Source: Dehalococcoidales bacterium (lineage in GTDB: Bacteria > Chloroflexota > Dehalococcoidia > Dehalococcoidales > RBG-16-60-22). From it: 64,000 nucleotides of DNA. The position numbers and the translations under genes are program-made. This document shows positions 2,881-63,599 of the stretch, piece after piece. A model generated the notes under the pieces. It had not been told where the DNA came from, did no database searches, and worked only from the letters and a program-made list of their open reading frames with translations. The DNA lies in assembly GCA_034409565.1 (NCBI GenBank), contig DAOUMS010000015.1:23227-87226 (forward strand). The letters run 5' to 3'. Position 1 is the first letter of the stretch, and each line of letters begins with the position of its first letter.

Positions 2881-2995
2881 GTAAACAGATTGTAACAGTT
2901 GTAGTTTACAGCAGATATTATTAAGTGTGGGAGGATGGGTAGTCGTTAAGCATACAAGCCAGATTCACCCCGGTGGCACCCGCGACAAAGCAGCC

Positions 2996-5857
2996 ATGCC
3001 AAAAAAGATTCTAACTGTAATCATAATTCTCGTTACCGTAGCTGCCTTAGGTGGCCAGCTGTTCTGCTTGGTCGATTATGCCGGTAAAGTGGCACAGGCG
3101 GAATCCGGTCCTGACCTGACGGTGGCGGTGATAACCAGCTCACCGGAAACACCGACCTTCGAGGATGAGGTAACCTTCACCGTCACCATCAGCAACCAGA
3201 GCGCGGTCGCTTCAGGTCAGTGCTATGTTGCTTATTACATTGATGGTGACTATCTTGACCGCGACTATGTGCCACCGCTCGACCCCGGCGCCAGCACCAA
3301 AAACACCTTCACCTGGACCGCTGAAGCCGGCATACATGACATTACTGCGGTGGTCGATTATCTGGAAGAGGTGAATGAAAGCGTTGAGGGCAATAATCAA
3401 AAAACCTTCACCCTATCCACACTGGGCGCAGACCTGATAATCGATTCTATAACCTGGTCGCCGTCGAACCCGGCCGTTAGCGAGACAGTGTTTTTCGCGG
3501 TAACGGTTAAAAACCGGGGCGCCGTTGTTGCCATCTCAAGTCGCGTGTATTTTTACATCGGCGGCGCTTCCCGCGGTTACCAGGATGGCGGCAAAATATA
3601 CCCCGGGGAAACACTGACCCTGACCTTCCCCTGGTATACCAAGACAGGCCCGCATGAAGTCAAGGCCATCGTCGACCAGAGCGACATTGTGCCCGAAACC
3701 GATGAAGACAATAATGAAATGACGGCCGTCTTTTCTGTCCTGCTTCCCGACCTAATCATAGATGAAATCTCAAGGTCTCCCGAGGCACCATCAATAGGCG
3801 ATAATGTAAGCTTCATGGTATCTGTCACCAACCAGGGCAGTGCTGCGTCAGGCATGTCAGTGGTCGATTTTTACATGAATGACAAACTTTTAGATACAGT
3901 ATGGGTCGAGGCACTGGAGCCCGGTGCTTCCGGAAACGCGACTTTTTACTGGATTGCCAGGACAGGCACATACGATATAAAAGCCACCGTGACCACAGGC
4001 GGTTTTCTTGCCGAGAGTGACAAAACCAATAATGAAAAAACCTTCACCTTCTCACCAGGTCTGGCTGACTTTATTGTCCAGGATATCACCTGGTCACCAA
4101 CCGAGCTATCGATAGGCGACAGGATTACCTTTACCGTGACCGTGATGAACCAGGGGGCCGGCGACGCGGCTGATTCCCGCGTGGAGCTGTATATTGGTGG
4201 CGTCAAACTGAATCATAAGGAATTCGGGGATATTGATGCCGGTGATACAGTGGGAGTAACTTTTACCTGGAAAGCCACGGAAGGTTCACACCAGATAAAG
4301 GCCATTATCGATACCAGAGATGAAGTGCCCGAGAGCGATGAAACAAATAACGAAAAAACGGTCACCTTTTTAACACCAACCTCTGACCTTATCATTGAGC
4401 AGATAATCTGGATCCCATCAGAGCCAGTTATCGGTGACATGGTGACCTTTACCGTTACGGTTAAAAACCAGGGAGGGGCCGGCTCTGATTACACCCATGT
4501 TAACTATTACATTGATGACAATCAGGTTTCTTCCGACTACATAGAGCCAATATCAGCTAACACCACCGATAATCAGACCTTTACCTGGACGGCCATCGCT
4601 GGCGAACATGTTATTAAAGCTTTCGTTGACTTTATTAACACCGTTAGCGAAAGCGATGAGAACAATAATGAAAAGTCAATCACCCTGACTCCAATTGGTC
4701 CCGACCTCATCGTCGAAAGTATAGACTGGTCGCACAACGACCCGCCGGTGGGAGAAACGGTTACCTTTACCGTAATCGTACAGAATAATGGCGGTAGCCG
4801 GGCAGACGCTTCACTGGTCCACATCTACATTGATGACACCCCACGGGGTTATCAGGACATTCCAGAGGCGGACCCGGGCACAAAAATAATCAGAACCTTT
4901 GACTGGAAAGTGACAGCAGGCACGCACTCCATACGCGCTATCATTGATGAATCGAATCAGATAGCCGAGACTAATGAAGCCAATAATGAGACCCTGATTG
5001 GCTACCCCATGCCTGACCTTACTTTGGAAGCGGTGACGTGGAGCCCAGTAAACCCGGCACTGGGGGATAAAGTTACCCTGACCACATACGTCAAGAACGA
5101 GGGCAGCCACCAGGCGGGCGGTTTCCAGCTATGCTTCTACGTCGATGATAGTGCCGCGGATTACCGGGAAATTCCGCAGCTAGACGCCGGTGCGCGCGTG
5201 ACCAATACCTTTTCCTGGGAGGCCTCCATCGGCCCGCATACCCTTACCCTGGTCACTGATGACGCCAATGCCATTTCCGAGGGAGTTGAGAACAACAATG
5301 AAGAAACGGTCACCTTTGCCATTACCGCCCCTGACCTGACCATTGCGTCCATCACCGGGCCCGCTGAAGAACCTGCCGCCAGTGACAACGTGACCTTCAC
5401 GGTGACTATCAGAAATCAGGGTGATGCCAGGGCCAGATATTCATCGGTGAGCTACTACGTCGATGGCGAGCACATGGCCTCAGGACAAATCGAGCCCCTT
5501 GAGCCTGACGCTGAAATCAAGAAGACTTTCAGTACCTGGATGTCTCAGGGCGGACCGCATACGCTCAGGGTGGTCATTGATGAAGGCAACCAGCTTCCAG
5601 AGAGCAGCGAAGTGAACAATGAAGGGGCGTTTAATTTTACCAGCGCCAACGTCACCCCTTCGCCAGAGCCGGCGTCTGCCCCCAGCACAAAACCCAGGCC
5701 GAGGCCGACCCCCATTCCACTGACACCAACCGAAGAAGATGAGGGAGATGACAAGACAGCATTACTGTTTTTTGGCGTGGCGGTGCTGGTATTCGGTGCC
5801 ACCCTGATTTTCTCACTGCTACGGGAGATGCGAAAAAAGAGGGACCACCTGCCCTAG
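2996..5857 (+). CDS. Membrane-anchored surface protein with 8 tandem CARDB (Ig-like) domains
   Basis: Signal-like N-terminus MPKKILTVIIILVTVAAL (ATG 2996 preferred to GTG 2927). Eight repeats of the form xDLxI/V...TFTVTVxNxG...ExxExNN, then a Pro/Thr linker, a C-terminal TM helix and a basic tail (REMRKKR). Confidence 0.88.
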   Translation: MPKKILTVIIILVTVAALGGQLFCLVDYAGKVAQAESGPDLTVAVITSSPETPTFEDEVTFTVTISNQSAVASGQCYVAYYIDGDYLDRDYVPPLDPGASTKNTFTWTAEAGIHDITAVVDYLEEVNESVEGNNQKTFTLSTLGADLIIDSITWSPSNPAVSETVFFAVTVKNRGAVVAISSRVYFYIGGASRGYQDGGKIYPGETLTLTFPWYTKTGPHEVKAIVDQSDIVPETDEDNNEMTAVFSVLLPDLIIDEISRSPEAPSIGDNVSFMVSVTNQGSAASGMSVVDFYMNDKLLDTVWVEALEPGASGNATFYWIARTGTYDIKATVTTGGFLAESDKTNNEKTFTFSPGLADFIVQDITWSPTELSIGDRITFTVTVMNQGAGDAADSRVELYIGGVKLNHKEFGDIDAGDTVGVTFTWKATEGSHQIKAIIDTRDEVPESDETNNEKTVTFLTPTSDLIIEQIIWIPSEPVIGDMVTFTVTVKNQGGAGSDYTHVNYYIDDNQVSSDYIEPISANTTDNQTFTWTAIAGEHVIKAFVDFINTVSESDENNNEKSITLTPIGPDLIVESIDWSHNDPPVGETVTFTVIVQNNGGSRADASLVHIYIDDTPRGYQDIPEADPGTKIIRTFDWKVTAGTHSIRAIIDESNQIAETNEANNETLIGYPMPDLTLEAVTWSPVNPALGDKVTLTTYVKNEGSHQAGGFQLCFYVDDSAADYREIPQLDAGARVTNTFSWEASIGPHTLTLVTDDANAISEGVENNNEETVTFAITAPDLTIASITGPAEEPAASDNVTFTVTIRNQGDARARYSSVSYYVDGEHMASGQIEPLEPDAEIKKTFSTWMSQGGPHTLRVVIDEGNQLPESSEVNNEGAFNFTSANVTPSPEPASAPSTKPRPRPTPIPLTPTEEDEGDDKTALLFFGVAVLVFGATLIFSLLREMRKKRDHLP

Positions 5858-8005: not shown

Positions 8006-8428
8006 GTGTTCAAATCAGTCAATCTTCTCCGGCTGAATCACGGCCAGGAACTGCTAAGCGAGCTTACCAGATACTGTGAAAAGAAAGGCATAACCTCAGC
8101 CATAATCCTCGGTATCATTGGCTCTATAGAGAAGGTTAAATTCGGCACCGCCCCCAAAGACGGCACGTGGGGATGGGACTTTGACGAGTATGAGGGACAT
8201 CTGTCCATTCTCTCCGCTCAGGGTTCGCTTTCCGTACATGAGGGGGAGAAAATCTTCCACATCCACATGTGCGCCATTGACCCGCAGAAGCCGGGCCAGC
8301 TAATCGGTGGGCATGTCGAAGAAGCAATCGCCTGGGCGACGGTCGAGATTTACATCGGCGAGCTAAGCTATCAGCTCGAGCGTGACGTAGACCCCGAGTC
8401 TGGACTGACCGCGCTGCGGACCACCTAA
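8006..8428 (+). CDS. PPC (DUF296) domain protein
   Basis: GIIGSIEKV, ILSAQGSL, FHIHM, LIGGHV pattern. RBS AAGGAGG and GTG start. Confidence 0.8.
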   Translation: MFKSVNLLRLNHGQELLSELTRYCEKKGITSAIILGIIGSIEKVKFGTAPKDGTWGWDFDEYEGHLSILSAQGSLSVHEGEKIFHIHMCAIDPQKPGQLIGGHVEEAIAWATVEIYIGELSYQLERDVDPESGLTALRTT

Positions 8429-9831: not shown

Positions 9832-10863
9832 ATGAAAGCACTGGTGAAAACAAGCGAAGCTATCGGATACGAGTACAAGGATGTTGATATGCCCAAAATC
9901 GGGCCTAAGGATGTCCTGGTCAAAATTAAGGGCACCACCATCTGTGGCAGTGATATCCACATCTATCATTCATCACCCAATATCATGAAAATGATGCAGT
10001 TACCCATGGTTACCGGCCATGAAACGTGTGGCGATGTGGTGGAAGTGGGCGAATGCGTGACCAGCCTCAAGAAAGGCGACGTGGTTTCTGCAGAGCCGCA
10101 CATTTTCTGCGGGGAATGCTACTACTGCCAGAACAGCGCGGCACTCAACTGTCTGAATATGGGCCTCCTCGGCCATACCATCGGCGGCGCCTTTGCCGAG
10201 TATATGGCCGTGCCGGCCCACGTCTGCTGGAAACACCCGCCAGGCACCTCTTACGAACTCGGCGCCATTCATGAGCCGCTTGGCGTGGGCGTACACGGCG
10301 TAATGGCCGGGGAAATCAACGGCAAAAGCATGGCTGTTTTTGGCTGCGGACCCATCGGCATGTTTGCCATCGGCGCCGGCAGGGTATTCGGGGCGACCAA
10401 ACTTTTTGGCGTTGAAGTGGCGCCGAAAAGGGTGGCTATGGCACGCCAGCTCTTCCCTGACGCCACCATCATTAACCCCAAAGAGCAGGACCCGGTCAAG
10501 ACCATCATGGACGCCACCGATGGCCTTGGCGTGGAAGTATCCATTGAGCTCAGCGGCAGTGCCGAAGCCACCAGGCTGGCCTTCCAGGCGCTGAGGCGCG
10601 AGGGCAGGGTAAGCCTAGTCGGTGTGCCCCCCAGAGCCATGGAATTTGACTTCCACCCCAATATCATACTCAAGGAAGCCAGAGTGCTGGGTGTGTTCGG
10701 CCGTGTCGTCTGGCAGACCTGGTGGCAGGTTCGAGCCCTGCTGGACACGGGCAAGTTCGACCCGCTGCCGATTATAACCCACCGCTTCCCGCTAGCAGAA
10801 TTTGAGAAAGCTTTCCAGCTGGCCCAGAGCGGTGAGGCAGGGAAGATACTGTTAATCCCCTGA
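9832..10863 (+). CDS. Zinc-dependent alcohol dehydrogenase, threonine dehydrogenase (Tdh)-like
   Basis: ICGSDIHIY, GHETCG, structural Zn site CGECYYC...C, GCGPIG. No kbl nearby, so the substrate is unassigned. Confidence 0.85.
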   Translation: MKALVKTSEAIGYEYKDVDMPKIGPKDVLVKIKGTTICGSDIHIYHSSPNIMKMMQLPMVTGHETCGDVVEVGECVTSLKKGDVVSAEPHIFCGECYYCQNSAALNCLNMGLLGHTIGGAFAEYMAVPAHVCWKHPPGTSYELGAIHEPLGVGVHGVMAGEINGKSMAVFGCGPIGMFAIGAGRVFGATKLFGVEVAPKRVAMARQLFPDATIINPKEQDPVKTIMDATDGLGVEVSIELSGSAEATRLAFQALRREGRVSLVGVPPRAMEFDFHPNIILKEARVLGVFGRVVWQTWWQVRALLDTGKFDPLPIITHRFPLAEFEKAFQLAQSGEAGKILLIP

Positions 10864-10930
10864 TAGAAGGGCACATACACCTTTGGTAGCAAGATAACCT
10901 TCCCTCACGCGGTCCGGAGGTAAGTGAGCT

Positions 10931-11749
10931 ATGGGAGAACGTCTGAAAGACAAAGTAGCCATCATCATCGGGGCTGGTGCCATCGGTCCAGGCATGGGCA
11001 ACGGCAAGGCAACCGCTATCGTCTTTGCCCGGGAAGGCGCCAAAATCATGGCCGTTGACATCAACCGTGAAGCCGCCGAGGAGACCAAGGGCATCATAGA
11101 ACAGGAAGGCGGCGAGTGCGTCACCTTCCAGGCCGATGTTGCCAAAGCCAGCGACTGCCAGAAGATAGTGGAGGCGTGCCTCCAGTCGTACGGTCGACTC
11201 GATATCCTTGATAACAACGTGGCTTTGGGGTCGCACGGCGGTCCAGTGGAAATTAGCGAGGAGACCTGGGACCGGGTGATGAACGTGAATCTGAAGAGTA
11301 TGTTTCTCACCTGCAAGCACGCCCTTCCCCATATGGAGAAGCAGGGCAGCGGCGCCATCATCAATATCGCCTCCATCGTCGCGATACGGGCGGAACCTTC
11401 GCCTATGCTAGCCTACGCCGTCTCCAAAGCAGGCGTGATTGCCCTGACCCGCGAGGTAGCTATTCAGTACGCCAGTAAAGGCATCCGTTGCAACGCCGTA
11501 CTGCCCGGGCTGATGAAAACGCCGCGGATTGAACGCTACTATGCCGGTGTCTTTGGCAGCGATATTGAGCAAACCTGGCGGCGGCGGGACGCCATGTCCC
11601 CCACCGGCAAGCAGGGAGAGCCCTGGGACATTGCCTACGCGGCACTGTTTCTGGCCTCCGATGATTCGAAGTACATCACCGGAACCACGCTGGTAGTGGA
11701 CGGCGGCATGGTCGGGACGATGAGGACCTGGTCACCGGAAGTGAAATAA
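10931..11749 (+). CDS. SDR family oxidoreductase (paralog 1 of 3)
   Basis: GAGAIGPGMGNGKA, VDIN, YAVSK catalytic motif, PGLMKTP. Confidence 0.88.
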   Translation: MGERLKDKVAIIIGAGAIGPGMGNGKATAIVFAREGAKIMAVDINREAAEETKGIIEQEGGECVTFQADVAKASDCQKIVEACLQSYGRLDILDNNVALGSHGGPVEISEETWDRVMNVNLKSMFLTCKHALPHMEKQGSGAIINIASIVAIRAEPSPMLAYAVSKAGVIALTREVAIQYASKGIRCNAVLPGLMKTPRIERYYAGVFGSDIEQTWRRRDAMSPTGKQGEPWDIAYAALFLASDDSKYITGTTLVVDGGMVGTMRTWSPEVK

Positions 11750-11780
11750 ATATTTATCTAAGATAGAAAAGGAGAGGAAG

Positions 11781-12602
11781 ATGGGAGAACGACTTAAAGA
11801 CAGGGTGGCCATCATTACTGGTGCCGGCTCAATCATGGCCGGGACGGGCAACGGCAAGGCAACCGCTATCATCTTTGCCCGGGAAGGCGCCAAAATCATG
11901 GCCGTTGACTATAAGCTTGAAGCCGCCGAGGAAACCAGACGCATCATCGAACAGGAAGGTGGCACTTGCCTTCCCTTCTACGCCGATGTTTCCAGAGCCA
12001 GCGACTGCCAGAAGATGGTCGAGACCTGCGTCGAGAAGTTCGGCCGGGTTGACATCCTGCACAATAACGTGGGGATGGGCGGCTATGCCGGCCCGGTAGA
12101 GCTGGCGGAGGAAATCTGGGACAAGACCATGGCCGTCAACCTGAAAAGCATGTTCCTTACCTGTAAATATGTTCTGCCCTATATGGAAAAACAGGGTAAA
12201 GGCGTCATTGTCAATATCGCCTCACTCAGCGGCATCAGGTGTCAGCCGGCACCGTCGCTGGCTTACTCAGTGAGCAAGGCCGGGGTAATTGCCCTCACCC
12301 GGGAAGTGGCCATTCAGTATGCCGCCAAGGGCATCCGCTGCAATGCCATTCTGCCCGGGCTGATGAAGACCCCGATGGTCGAGTACTACAACCCTGATGC
12401 CTACGGCGACGGTAGCGTGGAACTGATGTGGCAGCGGCGTGATGCCATGTGCCCCACCGGCAAGCAGGGCGAATCGTGGGATGTGGCTTACGCTGCCCTC
12501 TTCCTCGCTTCCGATGATTCAAAGTACACCACCGGGACGACCTTGCTGGTTGACGGGGGCCTTGCCCAGACCATGCGGTCGTGGTCGCCGGAAAAGAAAT
12601 AG
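11781..12602 (+). CDS. SDR family oxidoreductase (paralog 2 of 3)
   Basis: TGAGSIMAGTGNGKA, HNNVG, YSVSK. Confidence 0.88.
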   Translation: MGERLKDRVAIITGAGSIMAGTGNGKATAIIFAREGAKIMAVDYKLEAAEETRRIIEQEGGTCLPFYADVSRASDCQKMVETCVEKFGRVDILHNNVGMGGYAGPVELAEEIWDKTMAVNLKSMFLTCKYVLPYMEKQGKGVIVNIASLSGIRCQPAPSLAYSVSKAGVIALTREVAIQYAAKGIRCNAILPGLMKTPMVEYYNPDAYGDGSVELMWQRRDAMCPTGKQGESWDVAYAALFLASDDSKYTTGTTLLVDGGLAQTMRSWSPEKK

Positions 12603-12632
12603 TGAATGAGAAATGAGATAGGAGGACTAAAA

Positions 12633-13436
12633 ATGGGAGATAGACTGAAAGGCAAAGTGGCCATTGTTACCGGAGCCGGTTCTGTCCTTCCCGGCATGGG
12701 CAACGGCAAAGCAACGGCCATCGTCTTCGCCCGGGAAGGTGCCCGGGTCATGGCCGTTGACTATAACCTGGAGGCCGCCGAGGAAACCAAGAAAATGATT
12801 GACCAGGAAGGCGGCGAGTGCGTCACCTTCCAGGCCGATGTTTCCAGAGCCAGCGACTGCCAGAAGATGTTCGAGGCCTGCATCAAGAAGTTCGGCCGGA
12901 TTGATATCCTGCACAACAATGTGGGTATCGGGCAGTGGGGCGGTGTCCTCGATACCACAGAAGAGACCTGGGACAAGGTGATGACGGTGAACGTGAAGAG
13001 CATGTTCCTCACCTGCAAATACGTCATCCCCTATATGTTGAAGCAGGGAGGGGGTTCCATCACCAATATCGCCTCGGTGGGGGGCATACGTTTCACCCTG
13101 CCCAACTGCGCCTACGCAACGTCAAAGTCAGCCATTTTTGGCCTTGCCAGAGACATCGCGCTTGAGTTCGCCAACAAGGGCATCCGCTGCAACACCATAC
13201 TACCCGGGCTGATGAAGACACCGCAGGCCCAGTACTACAACAAGGACGCCTGGGCGGGGGGCGATGTGGAAGAAATGTGGCGCCGCCGTGACGCCATGTG
13301 CCCCATGGGCCGGCAGGGTGAAGGCTGGGACGTGGCCAACGCCGCCCTTTTCCTGAACTCTGACGAGGCGAAGTACGTCACCGGGACCACCGTGCTGGTT
13401 GACGGAGGTATCTCGCAGACCATCCGGTCATGGTAA
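12633..13436 (+). CDS. SDR family oxidoreductase (paralog 3 of 3)
   Basis: TGAGSVLPGMGNGKA, HNNVG, YATSK. Start placed at MGDRLK (ATG 12633, RBS AGGAGG) by analogy with the two paralogs. Confidence 0.88.
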   Translation: MGDRLKGKVAIVTGAGSVLPGMGNGKATAIVFAREGARVMAVDYNLEAAEETKKMIDQEGGECVTFQADVSRASDCQKMFEACIKKFGRIDILHNNVGIGQWGGVLDTTEETWDKVMTVNVKSMFLTCKYVIPYMLKQGGGSITNIASVGGIRFTLPNCAYATSKSAIFGLARDIALEFANKGIRCNTILPGLMKTPQAQYYNKDAWAGGDVEEMWRRRDAMCPMGRQGEGWDVANAALFLNSDEAKYVTGTTVLVDGGISQTIRSW

Positions 13437-13565
13437 CGAATTTCACTTTTTGGAAATGGGTATTATATAATAATAAGGGCTGATTAAAACGTGTTGATGC
13501 TCAAACCATCGCTTCATTTCGTGCTTCTCGGTGTTTAATCCCAGTTTCAGTGGAGGAGATAACTT

Positions 13566-14525
13566 ATGGCTATTGCAAAGGAAAAGTTAATCTGGATTTT
13601 TCGCACCATGACCCGCATCAGACGGTTCGAGGAACATGTTGCCCGGGAGTTTGCTGACGGCAATATCCCCGGCAGCGTTCACCTCTACATCGGCGAGGAG
13701 GCGGTGGCGACGGGGGCAATTGCCCACCTGAAGAAAGAGGACTACATCATGAGTACTCACCGCGGACACGGGCACCTTATCGCCAAGGGCGGCGAAACCA
13801 AGAAGATGATGGCGGAACTCTTTGCCAAGAAAACCGGCTACTGCCTGGGCAAAGGAGGCTCCATGCACATCGCCGACCTGGATATCGGCATGCTGGGCGC
13901 CGCCGGTATCGTCGGCTCGGGAATCCCCATTGCCTCCGGCGCCGGACTTTCCGCCAAACTGAGGGGCACTGACCAGGTCACCATCTGCTTCTTCGGCGAC
14001 GGCGCCTCCAACATCGGCCGCTTCCACGAGGGCGTAAACCTGGCCTCCGTCTGGTCGCTACCGGTGGTCTTCATCTGCGAGAATAACCTCTGGGCAGTTT
14101 CCGTGCCCACCAGCACTTCGCTGAATGTAGCTAACGTGGCCGACCGGGCTGCCGGCTATGGAATCCCAGGGGTGGTGGTTGACGGCATGGATGTTACGGC
14201 GGTCTATGAGGCGGCCGGGGAGGCGGTAACCAGGGCCAGAAACGGAAAGGGACCGACCCTGATTGAGGCCAAGACATACCGCTACCGCGGCCACTTTGAG
14301 GGTGATTCCGGTACCTACCGCCCCAAAGAAGAGATTGAACAGTGGCTGCAGAGAGACCCCATCAAAAACTACAGGGAAAAGCTTACTGAGATGAAGGTGC
14401 TGACCGAAAAGCAAGCTGAAGATATTGATAAAGAAGCGCTTGCCGAAATGGATGAGGCGATGAAGTTCGCCCAGGAAAGCCCCTTCCCTGAGCCAGAAGA
14501 GGCTCTGGAAAACGTTTATACGTAG
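13566..14525 (+). CDS. ThDP-dependent dehydrogenase E1 alpha subunit (acetoin/pyruvate dehydrogenase family)
   Basis: HLYIGEEA, STHRGHGH, GKGGSMH, GDGA...ENN ThDP motif, YRYRGHFEGD. Confidence 0.9.
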   Translation: MAIAKEKLIWIFRTMTRIRRFEEHVAREFADGNIPGSVHLYIGEEAVATGAIAHLKKEDYIMSTHRGHGHLIAKGGETKKMMAELFAKKTGYCLGKGGSMHIADLDIGMLGAAGIVGSGIPIASGAGLSAKLRGTDQVTICFFGDGASNIGRFHEGVNLASVWSLPVVFICENNLWAVSVPTSTSLNVANVADRAAGYGIPGVVVDGMDVTAVYEAAGEAVTRARNGKGPTLIEAKTYRYRGHFEGDSGTYRPKEEIEQWLQRDPIKNYREKLTEMKVLTEKQAEDIDKEALAEMDEAMKFAQESPFPEPEEALENVYT

Positions 14526-14534
14526 GAGACAGGA

Positions 14535-15515
14535 ATGAGAGAGATAAATTTCCGACAGGCGATTGGCGAAGCCCTGGACGAAGAAATGGCCAGAGACCCC
14601 TCTGTGTTCATCATCGGTGAAGACGTGGGGCCAATGGGCGGCCTTATGGGTGAAATCGGCGGCCTGTATCAGAAATACGGCATAGACCGGGTCCGGGATA
14701 CTCCCCTTTCCGAGGCGGCTATCCTCGGCGCTGCCATCGGTTCCGCCATCACCGGGATGAGGCCGATTGCCAGGATGAGGTTCGCTGACTTTCTGGGGGT
14801 GGCCTGGGATGAAATCATGAACCAGATGACCAAGATGAAGTACATGTTTGGCGGCAAAATCAAGATGCCCCTGACCATGGACGCCCTCTGCGGCGCCGGC
14901 CGACGTTCCGCCGCCCAGCACTCCCAGAGCATCGAAGGCATGATGATGACCATCCCGGGACTGAAGATTGTCCTGCCCTCCAATGCCTATGACGCCAAGG
15001 GGCTGCTCAAGACCGCCATCAGGGATGATAACCCAGTTATGTTCTTCGAGCACAAGTTCCTGATGTGGGCCGGACCCAAAAGCGAGGTGCCGGATGAGGA
15101 ATACCTCATCCCCTTCGGTCAGGCAGATATCAAGCGGGAAGGCAGCGATGTTACCGTGGTCGCCACGGCCGCCATGGTAACCAAAGCGCTGAATGCCGCG
15201 GAAACACTGCAGAAAGAAAAGGGCGTCAGCCTGGAATTAATCGACCCTCGCACCATCGTCCCCTTCGATAAAGAGACGGTGCTGAAATCGGTGCAGAAGA
15301 CGGGTCGTCTGGTTGTCTTTACCGAGGAGTGCCGGACGGGCAGTTTTGCCGGCTACATGGCGGCAATCGTGGCCGATGAAGGCTTCGATTATCTTGATGC
15401 CCCGATTAAACGGGTTAACGCGCCGGATACACCGGTGCCGTACGGGGTAATCATGGAAGACTTCTGGATTCCCAATGAAGAAAAACTGATCAAGGCCATA
15501 AACGAGATACTGTAA
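14535..15515 (+). CDS. ThDP-dependent dehydrogenase E1 beta subunit
   Basis: GEDVG, DTPLSEAA, AAQHSQS, PSNAYDAKGLL, FFEHK, DAPIKRV. Confidence 0.9.
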   Translation: MREINFRQAIGEALDEEMARDPSVFIIGEDVGPMGGLMGEIGGLYQKYGIDRVRDTPLSEAAILGAAIGSAITGMRPIARMRFADFLGVAWDEIMNQMTKMKYMFGGKIKMPLTMDALCGAGRRSAAQHSQSIEGMMMTIPGLKIVLPSNAYDAKGLLKTAIRDDNPVMFFEHKFLMWAGPKSEVPDEEYLIPFGQADIKREGSDVTVVATAAMVTKALNAAETLQKEKGVSLELIDPRTIVPFDKETVLKSVQKTGRLVVFTEECRTGSFAGYMAAIVADEGFDYLDAPIKRVNAPDTPVPYGVIMEDFWIPNEEKLIKAINEIL

Positions 15516-15581
15516 TTGCTATCCTGATTGCAGCGCGGTTCATATTCACAGTATCTTTTTACGGTTGAATTGAGCGCTATG

Positions 15582-15626
15582 AAAGGGGAAGGAATCAGCA
15601 AATAATTGTTGTCACCTTCCCTTTTT
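15582..15626 (+). terminator. Probable terminator after the E1 beta gene
   Basis: AAAGGGGAAGG ... CCTTCCCTTTTT, with inner pairing CAGCAA/TTGTTG. Confidence 0.5.
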
Positions 15627-15709
15627 GCTTTGAATGGGAAAAACGGTTTGCGCTAATGGCGCCATCCGTATAATATATTATCTAGCAAGCTACAGGAGGT
15701 ATTTAAGCT

Positions 15710-16555
15710 ATGGCCCACGATGCAAAGTTGATTCAGAAGCTGGCCGAAAAAGCCAGGATTATCCGCCGGGGCGCGGTGGAAATGATTAAAGCCGGCGATT
15801 CAGGGTGGATAGGTGGCTCATTTTCACAGGCGGATATCATCGCCGCGCTGATGTTCCACCACATGAAGCACGACCCCAAAAACCCGGACCTGAAGGACAG
15901 GGACCGGCTCATCGTCTCCAAGGCTCACTGCTGTGAGACGGTCTATGCCGCCCTCGGGGAATCGGGTTACTTCCCGAAGGAACTGTACCAGTCCTATGGC
16001 AAAATGGGGGCCACCCTGCAGGCGCATACGGAGCGGATTGTGCCGGGCATTGAATATTCTGGTGGCTCGCTGGGCGAGGGACTGTCCTTTGCCCTGGGTG
16101 AAGCGCTGGCGGCCCGCATTGATGCCCCCAAAGACTCGTCCGGTCGCCCTGCCCCCCGCTACCGTGTTTTCTGCATTATCGGCGATGGAGAGAGCAATGA
16201 AGGGCAGGTATGGGAAGCAGTCATGGCAGCGAAACACTACCAGGTGGACAACCTCGTGGCTATCCTTGACCATAACAAGTTCCAGTCCAGCGGCACGGTC
16301 GAAGAAAGGATGAACATGATGCCGTGGGTGAACAAATGGAAGGCCTTCGACTGGGATGCCACCGAGATTGATGGCCATGACTTCGAGGCTATCCTTACCG
16401 CCCTGGAAAATGCGGATAAGGTCGAGGGCAAGCCACACATCATCATCGCCCACACCACCAAGTGCAAGGGAGTGCCCTCTTTCGAGCACAAGAACCTGCA
16501 CTTCTGCAAACTGTCCGATGAAATGTACGCCGAGGCGATGGAGGCACTCAAATAG
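15710..16555 (+). CDS. Split transketolase-like protein, N-terminal (ThDP-binding) subunit
   Basis: DRDRLIVSKAH, GSLGEGLS, GDGESNEGQVWEA...DHN. Confidence 0.88.
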   Translation: MAHDAKLIQKLAEKARIIRRGAVEMIKAGDSGWIGGSFSQADIIAALMFHHMKHDPKNPDLKDRDRLIVSKAHCCETVYAALGESGYFPKELYQSYGKMGATLQAHTERIVPGIEYSGGSLGEGLSFALGEALAARIDAPKDSSGRPAPRYRVFCIIGDGESNEGQVWEAVMAAKHYQVDNLVAILDHNKFQSSGTVEERMNMMPWVNKWKAFDWDATEIDGHDFEAILTALENADKVEGKPHIIIAHTTKCKGVPSFEHKNLHFCKLSDEMYAEAMEALK

Positions 16556-16598
16556 TTAGCCTCGCGCCGATAATAAAAAGACCACAAGGGAGCGAAAG

Positions 16599-17564
16599 AT
16601 GAAACAGGATTATGTGCTGGAACCACTTGGTGAAATGAAGACCATGTACCAGGCCTACCATGAGGAAATGGTAGAGCTGTCCAAGAAAAACGGCAAGATA
16701 GTGCTCCTGTACGGCGACTTCCCCCGCGGTGCCGCTGGTGAACTGTTCCAGAAAGAGCACCCCGACCGTATCTATGACATGGGCATCGCCGAGGCAAACC
16801 TCATCACCACCGCCGCTGGCCTGGCGGGAGGCGGTTACCTGCCGTTCACTCACTGCCACAGCATCTTTGCCGTTGGCCGGGCGTATAACCAGATACGGCA
16901 GAACGTGGCCTTTGATAAATTAAATGTCAAGTTAGTCCTCTGCAACTCAGGTATGCTCTGGCCTTTTATGGGCGGTTCGCACCAGATTATTGAGGAAATC
17001 GCCGCCATGCGCGTTCTCCCCAATTTGGTGCTTGTTTCCCCCTCCGACCCCGTAGCAACGAAGAAAATGACCCGCGCCATCGCCGAGCATGTCGGCCCGG
17101 TAGCCCTGCGTATTTCCTTCCCACCCGTGCCCACCGTGTACCGTGATGACTTCCCGTTCACCCTGGGAAAGGCGGTGACACTGACCGATGGCAGCGACGC
17201 CACCATTATTTCCACCGGCATGATGCTCTCCGACGCCCTAGAAGCGGTTGACGCGCTGGCGAAAGAAGGCATCAAGGTACGCCTGCTGGATATGCACACG
17301 CTGAAGCCGCTTGATGCCGAGGCAATAATCAAGGCCGCCAGAGAGACTGGCGCCATCGTCACCGTGGAAGACAGCAGCATCCTTGGTGGCCTGGGCGGGG
17401 CGGTGACCGAGGTCGTGGCCGAGAATACGCCGGTCCCTGTGAAGCGGGTCGGCATCAAAGACCGCTTCGGCCAGTCAGGCACCGTACCGGAGCTGAAAGA
17501 AGAATATGAGATATCCGCCCGGCATATCGCCCAGGCGGTCAGGGAAGCGGTCAAGAAGAAATAG
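16599..17564 (+). CDS. Split transketolase-like protein, C-terminal subunit
   Basis: DMGIAEAN, RAYNQIR, SHQ, DMHTLKPLD, GGLGGAV, DRFGQSG. Confidence 0.88.
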   Translation: MKQDYVLEPLGEMKTMYQAYHEEMVELSKKNGKIVLLYGDFPRGAAGELFQKEHPDRIYDMGIAEANLITTAAGLAGGGYLPFTHCHSIFAVGRAYNQIRQNVAFDKLNVKLVLCNSGMLWPFMGGSHQIIEEIAAMRVLPNLVLVSPSDPVATKKMTRAIAEHVGPVALRISFPPVPTVYRDDFPFTLGKAVTLTDGSDATIISTGMMLSDALEAVDALAKEGIKVRLLDMHTLKPLDAEAIIKAARETGAIVTVEDSSILGGLGGAVTEVVAENTPVPVKRVGIKDRFGQSGTVPELKEEYEISARHIAQAVREAVKKK

Positions 17565-17602: not shown

Positions 17603-18499
17603 ATGGAAAAACTCGGTTTTATCGGCCTGGGTCATATGGGTAAAGGCATGGCCTTGAACCTGGTCAAATCAGGTTATCCACTGACGGTCCACGACATCAG
17701 GCCCGAGCCTGTTCAGGAACTGGTGAAGGCCGGGGCCAAAGCGGCCGGTAACCCGCGCCAGGTGGCGGAGAATTCAGAGGTGGTCATCACCATGGTGACC
17801 TCATCACCGCACGTGGAGAAGATTATGTTCGGCCCTGATGGCGTTATCGCCGGGCTGAAAAAAGGCAACACCATCATTGACATGAGCACCATTGACCCGA
17901 TAGTGACCCGCAAGGTGGCGGCCGCCGCCGCCGAGAAGGGAATCGATATGCTGGATGCCCCGGTGAGCGGTGCTCCACCCAAAGCCGCCGATGGCACCCT
18001 CTCCATAATGGTGGGAGGGGAAAAAGAAGTCTTTGCCCGGTGCCGGCCAATCCTTGAGGTCATGGGGGAGAAAATAATTCACGCTGGCGATACCGGCATG
18101 GGAGAGGTGGTCAAGCTGGCCAACAACCTGGCCGCGGCTATCAACGGCGTCGGCGTTTTTGAGGCATTCCTGTTCGGCGTCAAGCTCGGTGCCGACCCCA
18201 AGGTCCTCTACGAGGTCATCAGCGCCAGTTCCGGAGCTAGCTGGGTACTGCACACCAGGGTACCCTACCCCAACGTTGTCCCCCAGAGCCCGGTAAACGA
18301 AGACTTTGCCCCCGGCTTTACCGCCGACCTGATGGCCAAAGACCTCGGCCTCATACTGTCTGCGGCCGAGGCAACCAAAACCCCACTGCTGACGGGCAGC
18401 CTGGTCAGGCAGCTGGTCGAGAGCGCCAGGGCCAGGGGACTGGGCAGCAAGGACTGGTCAGTAACTGCCAGAATAATACAGGAAATGGCCGGGGAATAA
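17603..18499 (+). CDS. NAD(P)-dependent oxidoreductase, 3-hydroxyisobutyrate dehydrogenase/tartronate semialdehyde reductase family
   Basis: GFIGLGHMG, IIDMST, DAPVSG, catalytic Lys in VKLANN, KDLGL. Confidence 0.88.
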   Translation: MEKLGFIGLGHMGKGMALNLVKSGYPLTVHDIRPEPVQELVKAGAKAAGNPRQVAENSEVVITMVTSSPHVEKIMFGPDGVIAGLKKGNTIIDMSTIDPIVTRKVAAAAAEKGIDMLDAPVSGAPPKAADGTLSIMVGGEKEVFARCRPILEVMGEKIIHAGDTGMGEVVKLANNLAAAINGVGVFEAFLFGVKLGADPKVLYEVISASSGASWVLHTRVPYPNVVPQSPVNEDFAPGFTADLMAKDLGLILSAAEATKTPLLTGSLVRQLVESARARGLGSKDWSVTARIIQEMAGE

Positions 18500-59480: not shown

Positions 59481-60102
59481 ATTGCCCCCGGTATTCCCCG
59501 GGCAACAGCCCGGCAATCTGCCCCATTATGGAGTGGGTGAACTCCGCAAGCTGTTTTCTGGTCACCTTGCCATTTACTGACGGCAGGGTAAATGGGCGCC
59601 CGATATTCACCGTGATTTCCGGACGGCGTAACCACCAGTTAAAGCCCGTTATTTTTTCGGTGCCACAAATTCCCACCGGCAGGATGGGAACACCGTTACG
59701 CACCGCAATGAGTGCCGGCCCGGAAAAAGCATTGGCCAGTTGCGCTTCCAGGCTGCGCCGGCCCTCCGGAAAGGCGATTAGCGCACCTCCCCGGCCAAAC
59801 AATTTTTCGGCAAAGCGCAGGGCGTCCCGGTTCATGCCCCCGCGCCGTATGGGAAAGGCGCCACATCTATGGAAGATATAACGCGGTATCCGACCGCGGA
59901 ATAGCTCCTCCTTGGCCAGAAACATCGCTTCCCGTTTGATGCCGATACCCACCAGCGGCGGGTCCGCCATGCTGAGATGGTTCGATACCACCAGCAGCGG
60001 CCCTTCAACCGGAACATGCTCTCTGCCGAACACCCTGAACCTGGTTAAGAGAAACGCAAGCACCTGCGTCAAAGTACGGCCAACATAGTAAATCCAGTGC
60101 AT
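59461..60102 (-). CDS. plsC: 1-acyl-sn-glycerol-3-phosphate acyltransferase
   Basis: NHLSMAD, FLAKEEL, FPIRR, FPEGRRS. Confidence 0.9.
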   Translation of the reverse strand: MHWIYYVGRTLTQVLAFLLTRFRVFGREHVPVEGPLLVVSNHLSMADPPLVGIGIKREAMFLAKEELFRGRIPRYIFHRCGAFPIRRGGMNRDALRFAEKLFGRGGALIAFPEGRRSLEAQLANAFSGPALIAVRNGVPILPVGICGTEKITGFNWWLRRPEITVNIGRPFTLPSVNGKVTRKQLAEFTHSIMGQIAGLLPGEYRGQYGGEKS

Positions 60103-60135
60103 TTCTTCCTACAGGAAGATATGGTATTTCTCTCA

Positions 60136-60164
60136 ATTATAGCGGTGGGGCGAGTCAAAGGCAA
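60136..60164 (-). promoter_or_regulatory. Putative promoter of plsC-ispH
   Basis: TTGCCT-17 nt-TATAAT on the minus strand. Confidence 0.5.
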
Positions 60165-60178
60165 TTTAGGTTGATGCA

Positions 60179-60922
60179 CTAAGGAATAGGGAATACGTTA
60201 CCATTACTGTGGAAATCCCTCAGGACTTTCCCATAAACTCCGTTTACAAGGTCGTTTAACTTTTTAACTATGCTATTACAATAGTTTATTGCAACCCGAC
60301 GCCGTGTAAATGTGAAGGGCCTAGTTTGAGGATTGTCAGGCAATTTAATATCCTCTGTCAATTTATACTTGTTTTCAACCTGGTCATAGCTAAATTTTAT
60401 ATTATCATACCTAATTAAACTTTCATGTGTTGTGCAATGCCTAAAGGGTTCGAATTCGATAAACCATCGCTGGCGAATTTGCATATCTAGAAATCGGCTA
60501 GTTTCCGACGCGTTATGACTAACTGATAACATTTGATTAGCGGTGGATATGTATATATTACGAGGCACTCGGGGAACTGTAAATAAAGTATACAATTCGT
60601 GTCCAAGCGTATCCATCACACTCATAGCATTCATAAAAAAACCATCTAGAAAAAGATTCATATACAGACAATATCCATGTGTATCAAGCAGAGGTTCTTG
60701 TGCTGTTGTGACTGCAGATTGTGTAGATTGTGTGGCCGTAGAGGAAGGGAATACCTTAAATTGATTTATATCAAGGTCTTGAATTGACTTACGATAATAC
60801 TCTACTGACCACAGCTTTTGACTCACAGAGCTATGAAAAAGATTGAAATCAAACAATAAGCGACTATCAGTTACTGCCCTATTATAGAATTCACGTATTT
60901 GTTGATGATCTGGTTGTGACAT
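60179..60922 (-). CDS. Putative HEPN-superfamily RNase (Cthe_2314-like)
   Basis: Helical protein with FLDGFFMNAMSVMDTLGHEL and the Rx4H motif RHCTTH (60425-60442). AT-rich. ATG 60922 preferred to TTG 60934. Confidence 0.65.
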   Translation of the reverse strand: MSQPDHQQIREFYNRAVTDSRLLFDFNLFHSSVSQKLWSVEYYRKSIQDLDINQFKVFPSSTATQSTQSAVTTAQEPLLDTHGYCLYMNLFLDGFFMNAMSVMDTLGHELYTLFTVPRVPRNIYISTANQMLSVSHNASETSRFLDMQIRQRWFIEFEPFRHCTTHESLIRYDNIKFSYDQVENKYKLTEDIKLPDNPQTRPFTFTRRRVAINYCNSIVKKLNDLVNGVYGKVLRDFHSNGNVFPIP

Positions 60923-60956
60923 ATATTTACACAACCTTATAACATACTAATCGAAG

Positions 60957-61697
60957 TCATTCCCCATGATATTCTTTTCTCTGTATCCAGTTAGGTTTTT
61001 CGGAAGGAGCAAACAACAGGACATCGATGGGACCGCCAACATTCTTTGGTCGTGCCTGAAAACGCATCGTATCTATAGTAGTTCGAATAGCAAACACCGC
61101 AAAATCTATAGCATCTTGTAGAGTCATAGCATCCCATATTATTGGAGCCGGGGCACGAATGACTTTTTCCTGTCCTTTCTCGTCTGCTATTACCACGGGA
61201 TTTATTATGGAAGTAAGTATGTCAGTCTGCCCGGACCAGCTGGCACCATACGCAACTGTCTTGTTCGGTCTTACATTTCGTCTTTCAACTTTATTATTTC
61301 CTACATGGCAGCGAAAAACGTAAGGAATGCTGAGTTTTTGTTCTTTTTTATATCCCGCAACGTGGAACCCGGCATCTGCTTTAGGTGCAAAACTACGAAA
61401 ATAGTCTATTAATTTCTGAGGGATTGTTGTAACATCGTCTGCTGCTACTAATGTTTCTTCAATGAAACCTCTTAAGTATCGGGCCATAGGCACGCCGTTA
61501 ATCATATCCTGACCATAGTTTGATATACCGACCTGTTGCTCCTCTAGTAAAAAGGTCTTAGTAACAGCATCTGAATTCACTGTCTCGACCTTCACATCTC
61601 TTCCGTCTGGAGCTTTTCCTTCAACGGTCACAGATTGCCTGCTATCAGAAGCCATAACAATACCTTCTGGAACGTAAACAACAATAATTAATGACAT
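60957..61697 (-). CDS. Ntn-hydrolase, proteasome beta-like, with N-terminal Ser
   Basis: (M)SLIIVVYVPEGIVMASDSR...K, FHVAGY, DAIDFAVFAI...VGGPIDV. RBS GGAGG. Confidence 0.7.
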   Translation of the reverse strand: MSLIIVVYVPEGIVMASDSRQSVTVEGKAPDGRDVKVETVNSDAVTKTFLLEEQQVGISNYGQDMINGVPMARYLRGFIEETLVAADDVTTIPQKLIDYFRSFAPKADAGFHVAGYKKEQKLSIPYVFRCHVGNNKVERRNVRPNKTVAYGASWSGQTDILTSIINPVVIADEKGQEKVIRAPAPIIWDAMTLQDAIDFAVFAIRTTIDTMRFQARPKNVGGPIDVLLFAPSEKPNWIQRKEYHGE

Positions 61698-61744
61698 TCC
61701 GAACCTCCAATACTCTTACATGGCTGTAATTAAAAAGCAACAGA

Positions 61745-61772
61745 ATTATAATCCTAATATAGAAAATGTCAA
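61745..61772 (-). promoter_or_regulatory. Consensus sigma70 promoter of the Ntn-HEPN cassette
   Basis: TTGACA-16 nt-TATAAT on the minus strand. Confidence 0.75.
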
Positions 61773-61823
61773 TACCTAGATTAACTAGCTACATTAAAAA
61801 ATTGACGAAGTGTTACTTTTGAA

Positions 61824-63599
61824 CTACAGAATCAAGTTCAGCAGGCCGCCCACGGAAAGGGAAACTATAACCATGACGGCGGCGGCCTTGAGCATCCCGG
61901 TGGTGCCCAGCTCCCGCAGCAGGACGACAAAGGTGGCGATGCAGGGGAAGAACATGGCCAGCACCACGCTGCCCACGACCAGCTGTCCTGAGGTTAGCGC
62001 CAGAGGCGCCAGCATACCCACGGCCACGTCCTTGCGCAGGAAGCCGATGGCCAGCGCCACCACCGCTTCCTTGGGCAACCCCAGCAGGCCGGTTACCACC
62101 GGCGCCGTGAAATCGGCGATGGCATTGAAGACACCCAGGGCATACAGTATGTTCATCACCAGAACCGCGCCCAGAATAATCGGGATGGCTTCACGCAGGA
62201 AACCATGAACCCTGAGCCACAGCTTCTGCAACACGGTACGCCACGGCGGTATACGATAGGGTGGAATCTCGATTAATAGCTCGGGGCTGAAGCCCTTTAT
62301 CAGGCGATTGAGAATAAAGCCGAGTATGACCCAGACCAAGAACAGGGTCCCGTAGACGATGGCGACATACTGAATCCCGCGCTGTCCCACCAGGCCAAAG
62401 ACCATGGCCTGCAGCGCCGCGCAGGGCACGGCAATGGAAATAAGCGTGGCCGCGATGAACCTCTCCCGTTTGCTTTCCAGTATCCTGGTCGCCAGAATTG
62501 CCGGCACGTTGCAGCCAAGCCCCAGCAAGGTGGGGATAATGGCGTAACCGTGAAGGCCCAGGCGGTGCATGATGGTATCCATGAGAACGGCCAGACGCGG
62601 CAGATAGCCGATGTCCTCCAGCAGCCCGAGCAAGAGGTAGAAAGAGACGATGTATGGCAGCACCATGGCAAAAGGCACATAGAGCCCGGTGGTCAGTAAA
62701 CCGAACGACTCGACGTAATTGACCTCACCGGCCGCGATATTGCCGAGCAGTGCTGCATGGAAGATGCCGGAGCCGCCCATCAGGTTGCTCAGCCACAATA
62801 TCACCGGCGTCCAGAGGTGCTCGAACAGGGGGTCCAGGACGTAGGTTATCAGGCTTTCCCCGACGAAGCGGATACCAAAGAATGTGCCGGCAAGGACGAC
62901 CGCCGCGATGACTATGCCGGTTATTGGTCGGACGCTGGCATCTTCCAGGCGCTCCAGCCAGGTATGATGACGGTGGGTCACCTGCTGCACCTGTTCCACA
63001 ATGCTGCCAATGGCCGCCCACCGCTCATTGTGGCTGGCCTGGGGCAGTCTAAGCGCTCTGGCGGCGGGAAGGCTTTCCACCAGCTCTTTTATGCCCTGCC
63101 CGGCCACCGCCACCGTGGGAATAACGGGAACGCCGAGCAAATCCTCAAGCTTCTTTAAATCAATGTGGATGCCGCGGTGACCGACGTCGTCCCACATGTT
63201 CAGGGCTATGACCATCGGGATGCCCTTTTCCAGCAACTGGAGCGTCAGGTTTAGGTTTCTCTCCAGATTGGTGGCATCAACCACATTGATGACCACATCG
63301 CCGGTGGCAAGCATTTTCAGGGCGATTTCCTCTGCCTCCGAGGACGGCTCCAGCCCGTAAGTGCCGGGCACATCAACCACCTCCGCCACCTCCTCCCCAA
63401 TTTTCGTCAGTCCCTGCGTATAACCAACCGTAGTTCCCGGATAGTTGGAGGCGATAACCCGCACGCCTGTCAGTCGTGAAAAAACGACGCTCTTGCCGAC
63501 ATTGGGGTTGCCCATGAGGAGAATTTTCCTCAGGCCGCTTTTTTTACCTCTACCCTTTTTAACGCGGGGGATCGCCCCGTGACACGCCATTCCCCTCAC
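61824..63599 (-). CDS. feoB: Ferrous iron transporter B
   Basis: GNPNVGKS, NYPGTTV, DVPG, NLERNL, NMWD, then a membrane domain with GYLPRLA, GLGCNVPA and FFPC. Confidence 0.93.
   Translation of the reverse strand: MRGMACHGAIPRVKKGRGKKSGLRKILLMGNPNVGKSVVFSRLTGVRVIASNYPGTTVGYTQGLTKIGEEVAEVVDVPGTYGLEPSSEAEEIALKMLATGDVVINVVDATNLERNLNLTLQLLEKGIPMVIALNMWDDVGHRGIHIDLKKLEDLLGVPVIPTVAVAGQGIKELVESLPAARALRLPQASHNERWAAIGSIVEQVQQVTHRHHTWLERLEDASVRPITGIVIAAVVLAGTFFGIRFVGESLITYVLDPLFEHLWTPVILWLSNLMGGSGIFHAALLGNIAAGEVNYVESFGLLTTGLYVPFAMVLPYIVSFYLLLGLLEDIGYLPRLAVLMDTIMHRLGLHGYAIIPTLLGLGCNVPAILATRILESKRERFIAATLISIAVPCAALQAMVFGLVGQRGIQYVAIVYGTLFLVWVILGFILNRLIKGFSPELLIEIPPYRIPPWRTVLQKLWLRVHGFLREAIPIILGAVLVMNILYALGVFNAIADFTAPVVTGLLGLPKEAVVALAIGFLRKDVAVGMLAPLALTSGQLVVGSVVLAMFFPCIATFVVLLRELGTTGMLKAAAVMVIVSLSVGGLLNLIL

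Follow-up and report, generated by a model that had tools for sequence, protein, structure and literature searches.

Transketolases are workhorse carboligases in biocatalysis. In the E. coli and yeast enzymes, H66, H100, and H473 (E. coli TktA numbering, used throughout) hold the hydroxylated two-carbon intermediate bound to thiamine diphosphate (ThDP). In these two enzymes H26 and H261 also make hydrogen bonds to the carbonyl of the acceptor, D469, which is salt-bridged to R91, reads the substrate 2-hydroxyl, and R358, S385, H461, and R520 hold the substrate phosphate; the pocket floor is made up of I189, L382, and F434. Two-subunit paralogues, namely AptAB (apulose-4-phosphate) and SqwGH (sulfo-transketolase pathway), have been recruited to non-pentose-phosphate catabolism; a phosphate or sulfonate is still present on their substrates, and kinases or isomerases acting on those sugars are encoded in their gene clusters. 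Part of the residue roles given above is restated in PMC5073344 and PMC7661550. When E. coli transketolase is mutated at R358, S385, D469, R520, and L382, its activity shifts to aliphatic and aromatic aldehydes, and in docked models of an engineered variant the aldehydes hydrogen-bond H26/H261, with I189/L382/F434 as a hydrophobic floor (PMC7661550; PMC5073344). The split transketolase of Carboxydothermus hydrogenoformans, ChyTK, is encoded by adjacent genes, of which the N gene provides the diphosphate-binding (PP) domain and the C gene the pyrimidine-binding (Pyr) and TKC domains (6YAK/6YAJ; PMC7661550). Here we describe a gene pair with this same arrangement, TK*-N and TK*-C, in a 64,000-nucleotide stretch of DNA (the window, by which we mean the whole stretch analysed) that belongs to contig C15 of a genome of 1.9 Mb (88% complete) and whose proteins have close relatives labelled Dehalococcoidia or Dehalococcoidales. 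The encoded enzyme, TK*, keeps the residues with which transketolases bind the cofactor and the two-carbon unit and has replaced those that bind the rest of the substrate. It is an uncharacterised variant of the transketolase kind common to Dehalococcoidia and Bathyarchaeia, and no description of the subfamily was found in the literature searched.

Residues kept and replaced in TK*

Pfam assigns TK*-N to Transketolase_N (PF00456, 138.6 bits) and TK*-C to Transket_pyr (PF02779, 101.7 bits) and Transketolase_C (PF02780, 116.3 bits), every score being over its cut-off, as expected of superfamily members. The nearest solved structures are the two chains of ChyTK, matched over the full length. Scores to the NCBIfam transketolase equivalogs are lower than their cut-offs, with 253.8 (TK*-N) and 230.1 (TK*-C) bits against 488 for the best model, NF004559, and 150.9 and 48.6 bits against 682 for TIGR00232. 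An ESM Atlas look-up returned generic transketolase clusters only. The two-gene unit is never broken up, the N and C genes adjoining in all of the approximately 60 loci compared, and no fused form occurs among 150 representatives found without a length limit. Because of its homology with 6YAK, TK* is probably an alpha2-beta2 heterotetramer. E1 components of the AcoAB/PdhAB type are likewise alpha2-beta2 ThDP enzymes with the same domain split, and their substrates are small unphosphorylated carbonyls, but TK*-N belongs to the transketolase branch (PF00456 138 bits vs 33 bits for E1_dh) and has no associated lipoyl-E2 partner.

The pair was aligned with MAFFT to E. coli TktA (sequence taken from NC_000913), the full-length transketolase of the same genome, and its other split paralogues; HMMER alignments of the subunits to 6YAK/6YAJ are ungapped. 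Conservation was scored in a family set of about 120 homologue clusters per subunit, which are 63–100% identical. The original prediction, made from the letters of the window, held that the ThDP motif, the catalytic Glu, and several His are retained, and all of them were found where it had placed them: GDGESNEG...N189 and His 73, 106, and 264 in TK*-N, and GIAE at residues 62–65 of TK*-C. TK*-N keeps H66 (as H73), H100 (H106), L116 (L121), D155 (D159), N185 (N189), and H261 (H264), and TK*-C keeps D381 (D40), E411 (E65), F437 (F90), and H473 (H128). Invariant within the family are D159, N189, H73, H106, and H264 of TK*-N and E65, D40, F90, and H128 of TK*-C, with the GDG...N metal/diphosphate motif and the cofactor-activating Glu (D159, N189, E65) constant in 119 members. 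The donor- and intermediate-binding histidines of EC 2.2.1.1 (H66, H100, H261, and H473) are thus all present. In both TK* and ChyTK the cofactor ligands are Lys/His (diphosphate), Asp/Asn (metal), Glu (N1'), and Phe (stacking).

The substrate side has been rewritten. It had been predicted that the canonical GHPGGSLS reads GWIGGSFS and that a second motif is altered to CNSGMLWPFMGGSHQ; the ungapped HMMER pairing with 6YAK/6YAJ sets GWIGGSFS (TK*-N residues 32–39) against GHPGGSLS and CNSGMLWPFMGGSHQ (TK*-C residues 115–129) against THAGLTVGEDGASHQ, and the MAFFT alignment with TktA confirms H26, H461, and D469 as W33, N116, and M124. These three changes are real, but the extent of the rewriting had been under-counted. 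In TK*-N, R91 is also replaced (G97), and in TK*-C so are R358 (Y17), S385 (G44), L466 (W121), E468 (F123), and R520 (F174), while the hydrophobic floor has lost I189 (S193), L382 (F41), and F434 (H87). R358 was assigned to Y17 from local alignment with 6YAJ and the paralogues, in which there are no gaps; in a larger run, MAFFT moved the gap, to a conserved Lys three residues earlier. ChyTK, which shows normal transketolase behaviour, keeps H26, R91, R358, S385, H461, D469, and R520, whereas TK* has W, G, Y, G, N, M, and F at these positions, together with Ser for a thiazolium-contact Ile and Phe for L382. In terms of EC 2.2.1.1, the losses comprise H26, which contacts the substrate carbonyl/C3-OH and acts in acid/base catalysis (W33 in 118/118 family members), all four phosphate binders, and the D469 and R91 pair that selects 2-hydroxy aldehydes (M124 and G97, each in 119/119). 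Y17 is equally constant (119/119), F123 is found in 118 of 119 members and N116 in 107 of 119 (Thr in the remainder), and H85, C86, and H87, which form a new His-Cys-His, each occur in at least 117 of 119. As aligned at 43–45% identity to the solved structure, from which the pocket geometry is taken, the substrate channel of TK* is refilled with Trp, Phe, Tyr, Met, and the new His-Cys-His. Counted post hoc, TK* retains 12 of 12 positions for cofactor and ketol binding and 0 of 9 for the substrate tail (Fisher p = 3e-6, a test that was itself post hoc). A metal or Fe-S site built from C74, C75, C86, C115, C266, H85, and H87 was considered and rejected as a family feature: the archaea do not conserve C266, three members have Leu at C115, and two of the Cys are direct neighbours in the chain.

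Because all phosphate and 2-hydroxyl binders and H26 are replaced by conserved aromatic or aliphatic residues, TK* almost certainly does something other than pentose-phosphate chemistry, as had been predicted. The same genome encodes a canonical transketolase of 695 amino acids with every textbook residue, so that the pentose-phosphate job is covered, and a separate DXS of 642 amino acids. DXS is, like TK*, a transketolase-like ThDP enzyme, and NCBIfam dxs models match TK*-C at 185 bits, below their cut-off. The proposed alignment check against TktA and DXS showed the TktA His and Asp replaced in TK* and the opposite pattern in DXS: in the genome's own DXS, a single chain, Phe takes the place of H100 and the counterparts of H26, D469, and R520 are conserved, which sets TK* outside the DXS family (compare PMC13663882, PMC7661550). 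No NCBIfam equivalog of the AptAB/SqwGH type matched, and no sugar kinase/isomerase cluster is conserved around the pair in the approximately 60 loci.

Distribution and conservation of the family

TK* forms a single clade (support 99) on a long stem in a maximum-likelihood tree, within which the archaea form one sub-clade (99). Its next relatives are at most 46% identical, as found in a search of 1.8 billion 50%-cluster representatives of any length. A scan of one genome per GTDB species revealed about 35 carriers in Dehalococcoidia and about 14 in Bathyarchaeia, the latter 55–63% identical, besides single Nitrososphaeria, Spirochaetales, and Desulfobacteraceae bins; a Methylomirabilota bin has a slightly divergent form. 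Bacterial and archaeal members have one and the same pocket signature. That the replacement residues stay constant from Dehalococcoidia to Bathyarchaeia at this level of identity argues for selection for a new pocket and not for decay. True orthologues are rare, with 0 in 300 sampled genomes of the class, 3 in 200 of the order (all three in the family of the window genome), and 9–10 in 201 Bathyarchaeia, and a housekeeping role was rejected for this reason. Strong conservation combined with patchy, cross-domain spread points to TK* being a laterally exchanged accessory enzyme under strong selection.

Departures from the canonical pocket are not confined to TK*. In the 148 split-transketolase representatives nearest to TK*, the canonical residue is present at E411 in 100%, at R520 in 80%, at H461 in 62%, and at D469 in 61%, and approximately 40% deviate at H461 or D469. 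Judging from these alignments, divergent pockets are common in the under-studied split transketolases, and the TK* family is the most complete rewrite among those compared, kept across two domains of life.

Several relatives have partial changes. A Chloroflexota (Dehalococcoidales) sister clade (loci L057–L073, 41–49% identical) keeps His26 and an HCCE motif and has lost H461, D469, and R520; its genes adjoin a glyoxalase-like gene, Zn-ADH, a cupin-like protein, and an NAD epimerase, in some loci with RpiB or LarA homologues. The Methylomirabilota bin and an unclassified bacterium (L049:3913-4842, L050:8001-8930) carry an intermediate form that has THCH, CN, and W121, but Ile/Gly-Leu for Phe-Met at the D469 site. 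The window genome itself has four further split transketolase loci with partial changes (C7:51833-53609, C2:92940-94812, C2:30211-32842), one of them with the C gene before the N gene and one with two N genes and one C gene. Several of these paralogues lack H461 or R520, yet keep H26, R358, and mostly D469.

Putative reaction and competing explanations

With its cofactor ligands intact, TK* is predicted to be a catalytically competent, ThDP- and Mg-dependent enzyme of the transketolase fold. The retained cofactor-activating Glu and four His would hold the C1-hydroxyl and C2-oxygen of a ThDP-bound two-carbon (glycolaldehyde) unit, so that TK* would make or use a glycolaldehyde-type carbanion. 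H100, which is Phe in the genome's own DXS, is kept in TK*, which favours a hydroxylated C2 donor over pyruvate. The partner would be a small or hydrophobic uncharged aldehyde with neither phosphate nor 2-hydroxyl, or the matching unphosphorylated hydroxyketone. The aldehyde may then be reduced by the downstream reductase of the 3-hydroxyisobutyrate dehydrogenase (HIBADH) family or, in other genomes, oxidised by an adjoining aldehyde:ferredoxin oxidoreductase. As the reaction of TK* we therefore favour, with moderate confidence, ketol transfer or the cleavage or ligation of a C-C bond of the acyloin type, the substrates being small, uncharged aldehydes or hydroxyketones that lack phosphate. 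The suggestion of non-phosphorylated or hydrophobic substrates in the original prediction was a natural one and is in line with the engineering of E. coli transketolase (PMC7661550 section 12; PMC5073344). The three residues that make up the hydrophobic floor in the docked models of the engineered enzyme (I189, L382, F434) are also all changed in TK*.

TK* shares its fold and ThDP chemistry with TktA and engineered variants of it such as S385Y/D469T/R520Q (PMC5073344), and carries natural substitutions at the positions that engineers mutate. It goes beyond these variants in its changes at H26, H461, R358, R91, L466, and F434, in its new His-Cys-His and Cys-Cys-Glu, and in its split polypeptide. 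The engineers' targets H26, R358, S385, H461, D469, R520, L382, and F434 have thus already been rewritten in nature, and TK*, whose hydrophobic pocket is natural and strongly conserved, could serve without further engineering as a catalyst for unphosphorylated aldehydes. In Dehalococcoidia and Bathyarchaeia, two of the most abundant uncultured subsurface lineages, it points to an uncharacterised reaction; its interest, for enzymology as for understanding the metabolism of these groups, is moderate to high.

Several observations weigh against ketol transfer. H26 is one of the two histidines that act as general acid/base, so catalysis could be lowered or altered by its loss. AlphaFold models of the single subunits are weak, with a pLDDT of 75.7 for TK*-N and of 65.2 for TK*-C, whose active-site stretch 87–140 lies below 50. 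No neighbour is kept family-wide, and part of the gene context is synteny that related genomes have inherited. Lastly, an archaeal operon with PanB points to 2-oxoacid/one-carbon (C1) chemistry, which ketol transfer leaves unexplained.

It is possible, if unlikely, that TK* has the transketolase fold but works as a non-oxidative 2-oxoacid decarboxylase, decarboxylation being an option that the original prediction had also named. Its substrates would then be 2-oxoisovalerate, arylpyruvates, glyoxylate, or the like, and it would release an aldehyde that the HIBADH-like enzyme would reduce or aldehyde:ferredoxin oxidoreductase would oxidise. The hydrophobic pocket would suit such substrates, and pyruvate is accepted by some split transketolases (PMC13663882). 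Aldehyde:ferredoxin oxidoreductase adjoins the pair in loci L012, L013, L033, and L076; indolepyruvate:ferredoxin oxidoreductase-type genes, an aminotransferase, and DAHP synthase lie near it in L015, L031, and L036; and in archaea it adjoins PanB, whose substrate is 2-oxoisovalerate. However, the C1-hydroxyl binders H100 and H473 are kept, whereas the pyruvate-using DXS has Phe at H100. Nor is there any obvious basic residue, new and conserved, that could bind a carboxylate (archaea have Gln at R43), and transketolase-fold enzymes normally hold the carbanion and do not protonate it.

The archaeal operon raises a second and rather less probable alternative. In Bathyarchaeia, the order Ftr, Mtd, PCC/DUF296, TK*-N, TK*-C, PanB, FwdDBAC was found in 10 of 10 loci with enough flank. 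The conserved operon of PCC/DUF296, TK*-N, TK*-C, and PanB (L014, L039–L047, L052, L055; for example L040:6602-9920) is flanked by mtd and fwdDBAC and so lies within the C1 gene cluster of the tetrahydromethanopterin (H4MPT) type. PanB lies directly 3' of TK* in all 10 carriers of a sample of 201 Bathyarchaeia genomes and is the sole PanB in the five genomes checked. This PanB has a one-residue insertion in its catalytic GDS motif (GD-G-S) and GWGSG for GIGAG, both of which are absent from 18 PanBs of Bathyarchaeia without TK*. TK* might accordingly be the thiamine step of an undescribed pathway with PanB and the PCC/DUF296 protein on a C1-derived or pantoate-related 2-oxoacid. A PanB-type hydroxymethyltransferase would load a C1 unit from methylene-H4MPT or methylene-tetrahydrofolate onto a 2-oxoacid, TK* would cleave, decarboxylate, or ligate the product, and bacteria would have put this enzyme, exchanged between the Bathyarchaeia and the Dehalococcoidia, to use in other contexts. 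Such a route would connect the methyl branch of the Wood-Ljungdahl pathway to aldehyde and hydroxyacid metabolism. Against it, no bacterial locus has PanB beside TK*, PCC lies near TK* in two bacterial loci only, the three PanB copies of the window genome are canonical at these motifs and sited elsewhere, and the archaeal carriers are one clade, so the synteny may be plain inheritance.

That TK* is catalytically dead, or a purely regulatory or structural relative of transketolase, is very improbable: the catalytic H26 is lost, but the family does not vary in its ThDP/Mg ligands, its catalytic Glu, or four of its His, bacteria and archaea alike have held the new pocket residues constant, and the two-gene unit is always intact. 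Least probable of all, and close to negligible, is that TK* is a normal pentose-phosphate enzyme whose divergence is only apparent, since in spite of the name given by Pfam and automatic annotation and of four of five carrier Bathyarchaeia checked that have no other transketolase-type gene (N domain), the loss of the four phosphate binders, D469, and H26 is conserved, a canonical enzyme is present in the window genome, and the family is rare. Annotation of these genes as 'transketolase' overstates pentose-phosphate capacity.

Gene neighbourhood of TK*

The positions of the gene pair, its signals, its altered codons, and its neighbours are listed in Table 1.

Table 1. Features of the TK* locus, in window coordinates
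Feature	Position	Strand	Evidence or remark
TK*-N, ThDP diphosphate-binding (PP) subunit, 281 amino acids	15710..16555	+	PF00456 E 3e-40; 6YAK chain A E 7e-61
TK*-C, pyrimidine-binding and TKC-domain subunit, 321 amino acids	16599..17564	+	PF02779, PF02780; 6YAJ E 2e-77
Codons for GWIGGSFS, W33 in place of H26	15803..15826	+	W in 118/118 family members
Codon Y17, in place of phosphate-binding R358	16647..16649	+	Ungapped alignment with 6YAJ and three paralogues; Y in 119/119
Codons T84-H85-C86-H87, new His-Cys-His for T-S-T-F434	16848..16859	+	Kept in bacteria and archaea
Codons for CNSGMLWPFMGGSHQ (H461 to N116, L466 to W121, E468 to F123, D469 to M124; H473 kept as H128)	16941..16985	+	Alignments
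Codon F174, in place of phosphate-binding R520	17118..17120	+	Asn in most family members
AGGAGG ribosome-binding site, 10 nucleotides 5' of the TK*-N start codon	15694..15699	+	Read from sequence
Hairpin and U-rich tract, 3' of the E1-beta gene	15576..15634	+	RNA fold -23.7 kcal/mol, z -3.85 vs shuffles
HIBADH-like reductase (3-hydroxyisobutyrate dehydrogenase family), 38 nucleotides 3' of TK*-C	17603..18499	+	TIGR01692 312 bits, cut-off 291.6
E1 alpha and E1 beta (acetoin/pyruvate-dehydrogenase type), without adjacent E2	13566..15515	+	Neighbouring unit, context only
PCC/DUF296 protein, 7 kb 5' of TK*	8006..8428	+	Family belongs to the TK* operon in every Bathyarchaeia locus; link to TK* weak in bacteria

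TK*-N and TK*-C are separated by 43 nucleotides, and a GGGAG site precedes TK*-C. The hairpin between the E1-beta gene and the pair looks like a terminator that sets the E1 genes apart from the transketolase unit; a simple terminator scan upstream of TK*-N found none, missing this hairpin owing to its long loop, and it was found by folding. Given its position, the likely transcription unit comprises TK*-N, TK*-C, and the HIBADH-like reductase gene. The reductase is thus probably co-transcribed with TK* and may process a product of the aldehyde or semialdehyde type.

HIBADH-like reductases adjoin TK* in 15 bacterial loci, in both orientations, aldehyde:ferredoxin oxidoreductase in 4–5 loci, and an HpcH aldolase in 6 loci. 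In the sub-clade of the window, the gene order is Zn-ADH, three SDRs, E1 alpha/beta, TK*, and HIBADH-like reductase, with an amidase on the opposite strand; relatives have TRAP transporter genes upstream, and in more distant bacterial members the E1/SDR block is divergent or several kb off. Other bacterial loci have an HD-domain gene upstream and aldehyde:ferredoxin oxidoreductase, Ldh_2 dehydrogenase, and HpcH aldolase genes nearby, and further ones have indolepyruvate:ferredoxin oxidoreductase-type genes and an aminotransferase. The bacterial contexts share a theme of unphosphorylated aldehyde, hydroxyacid, and 2-oxoacid chemistry and have no universal partner. Two candidates for such a partner were rejected, namely PCC/DUF296, which accompanies TK* only in archaea and the two bacterial loci, and PanB, which is next to TK* in no bacterial locus.

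In the window, the block upstream of the pair (9832-15515) consists of Zn-ADH, three tandem paralogous SDRs, and the E1 alpha/beta pair, has no adjacent E2 or E3, and ends in the strong hairpin; the two E2 genes of the genome sit on other contigs (C1 and C8). The genome has three PanB paralogues (C18:268-1125, C3:83507-84367, C8:129373-130230), one adjoining a RACo corrinoid activator and a pterin-binding methyltransferase and another sited between two PrpD/MmgE proteins and aconitase X, and five PCC/DUF296 paralogues, including the one in the window. Elsewhere in the window, positions 2927-5857 encode a protein of 976 amino acids with approximately eight CARDB repeats, probably a surface protein, and positions 60001-62000 have a G+C content of 0.41, compared with about 0.55–0.59 elsewhere, and may be foreign DNA.

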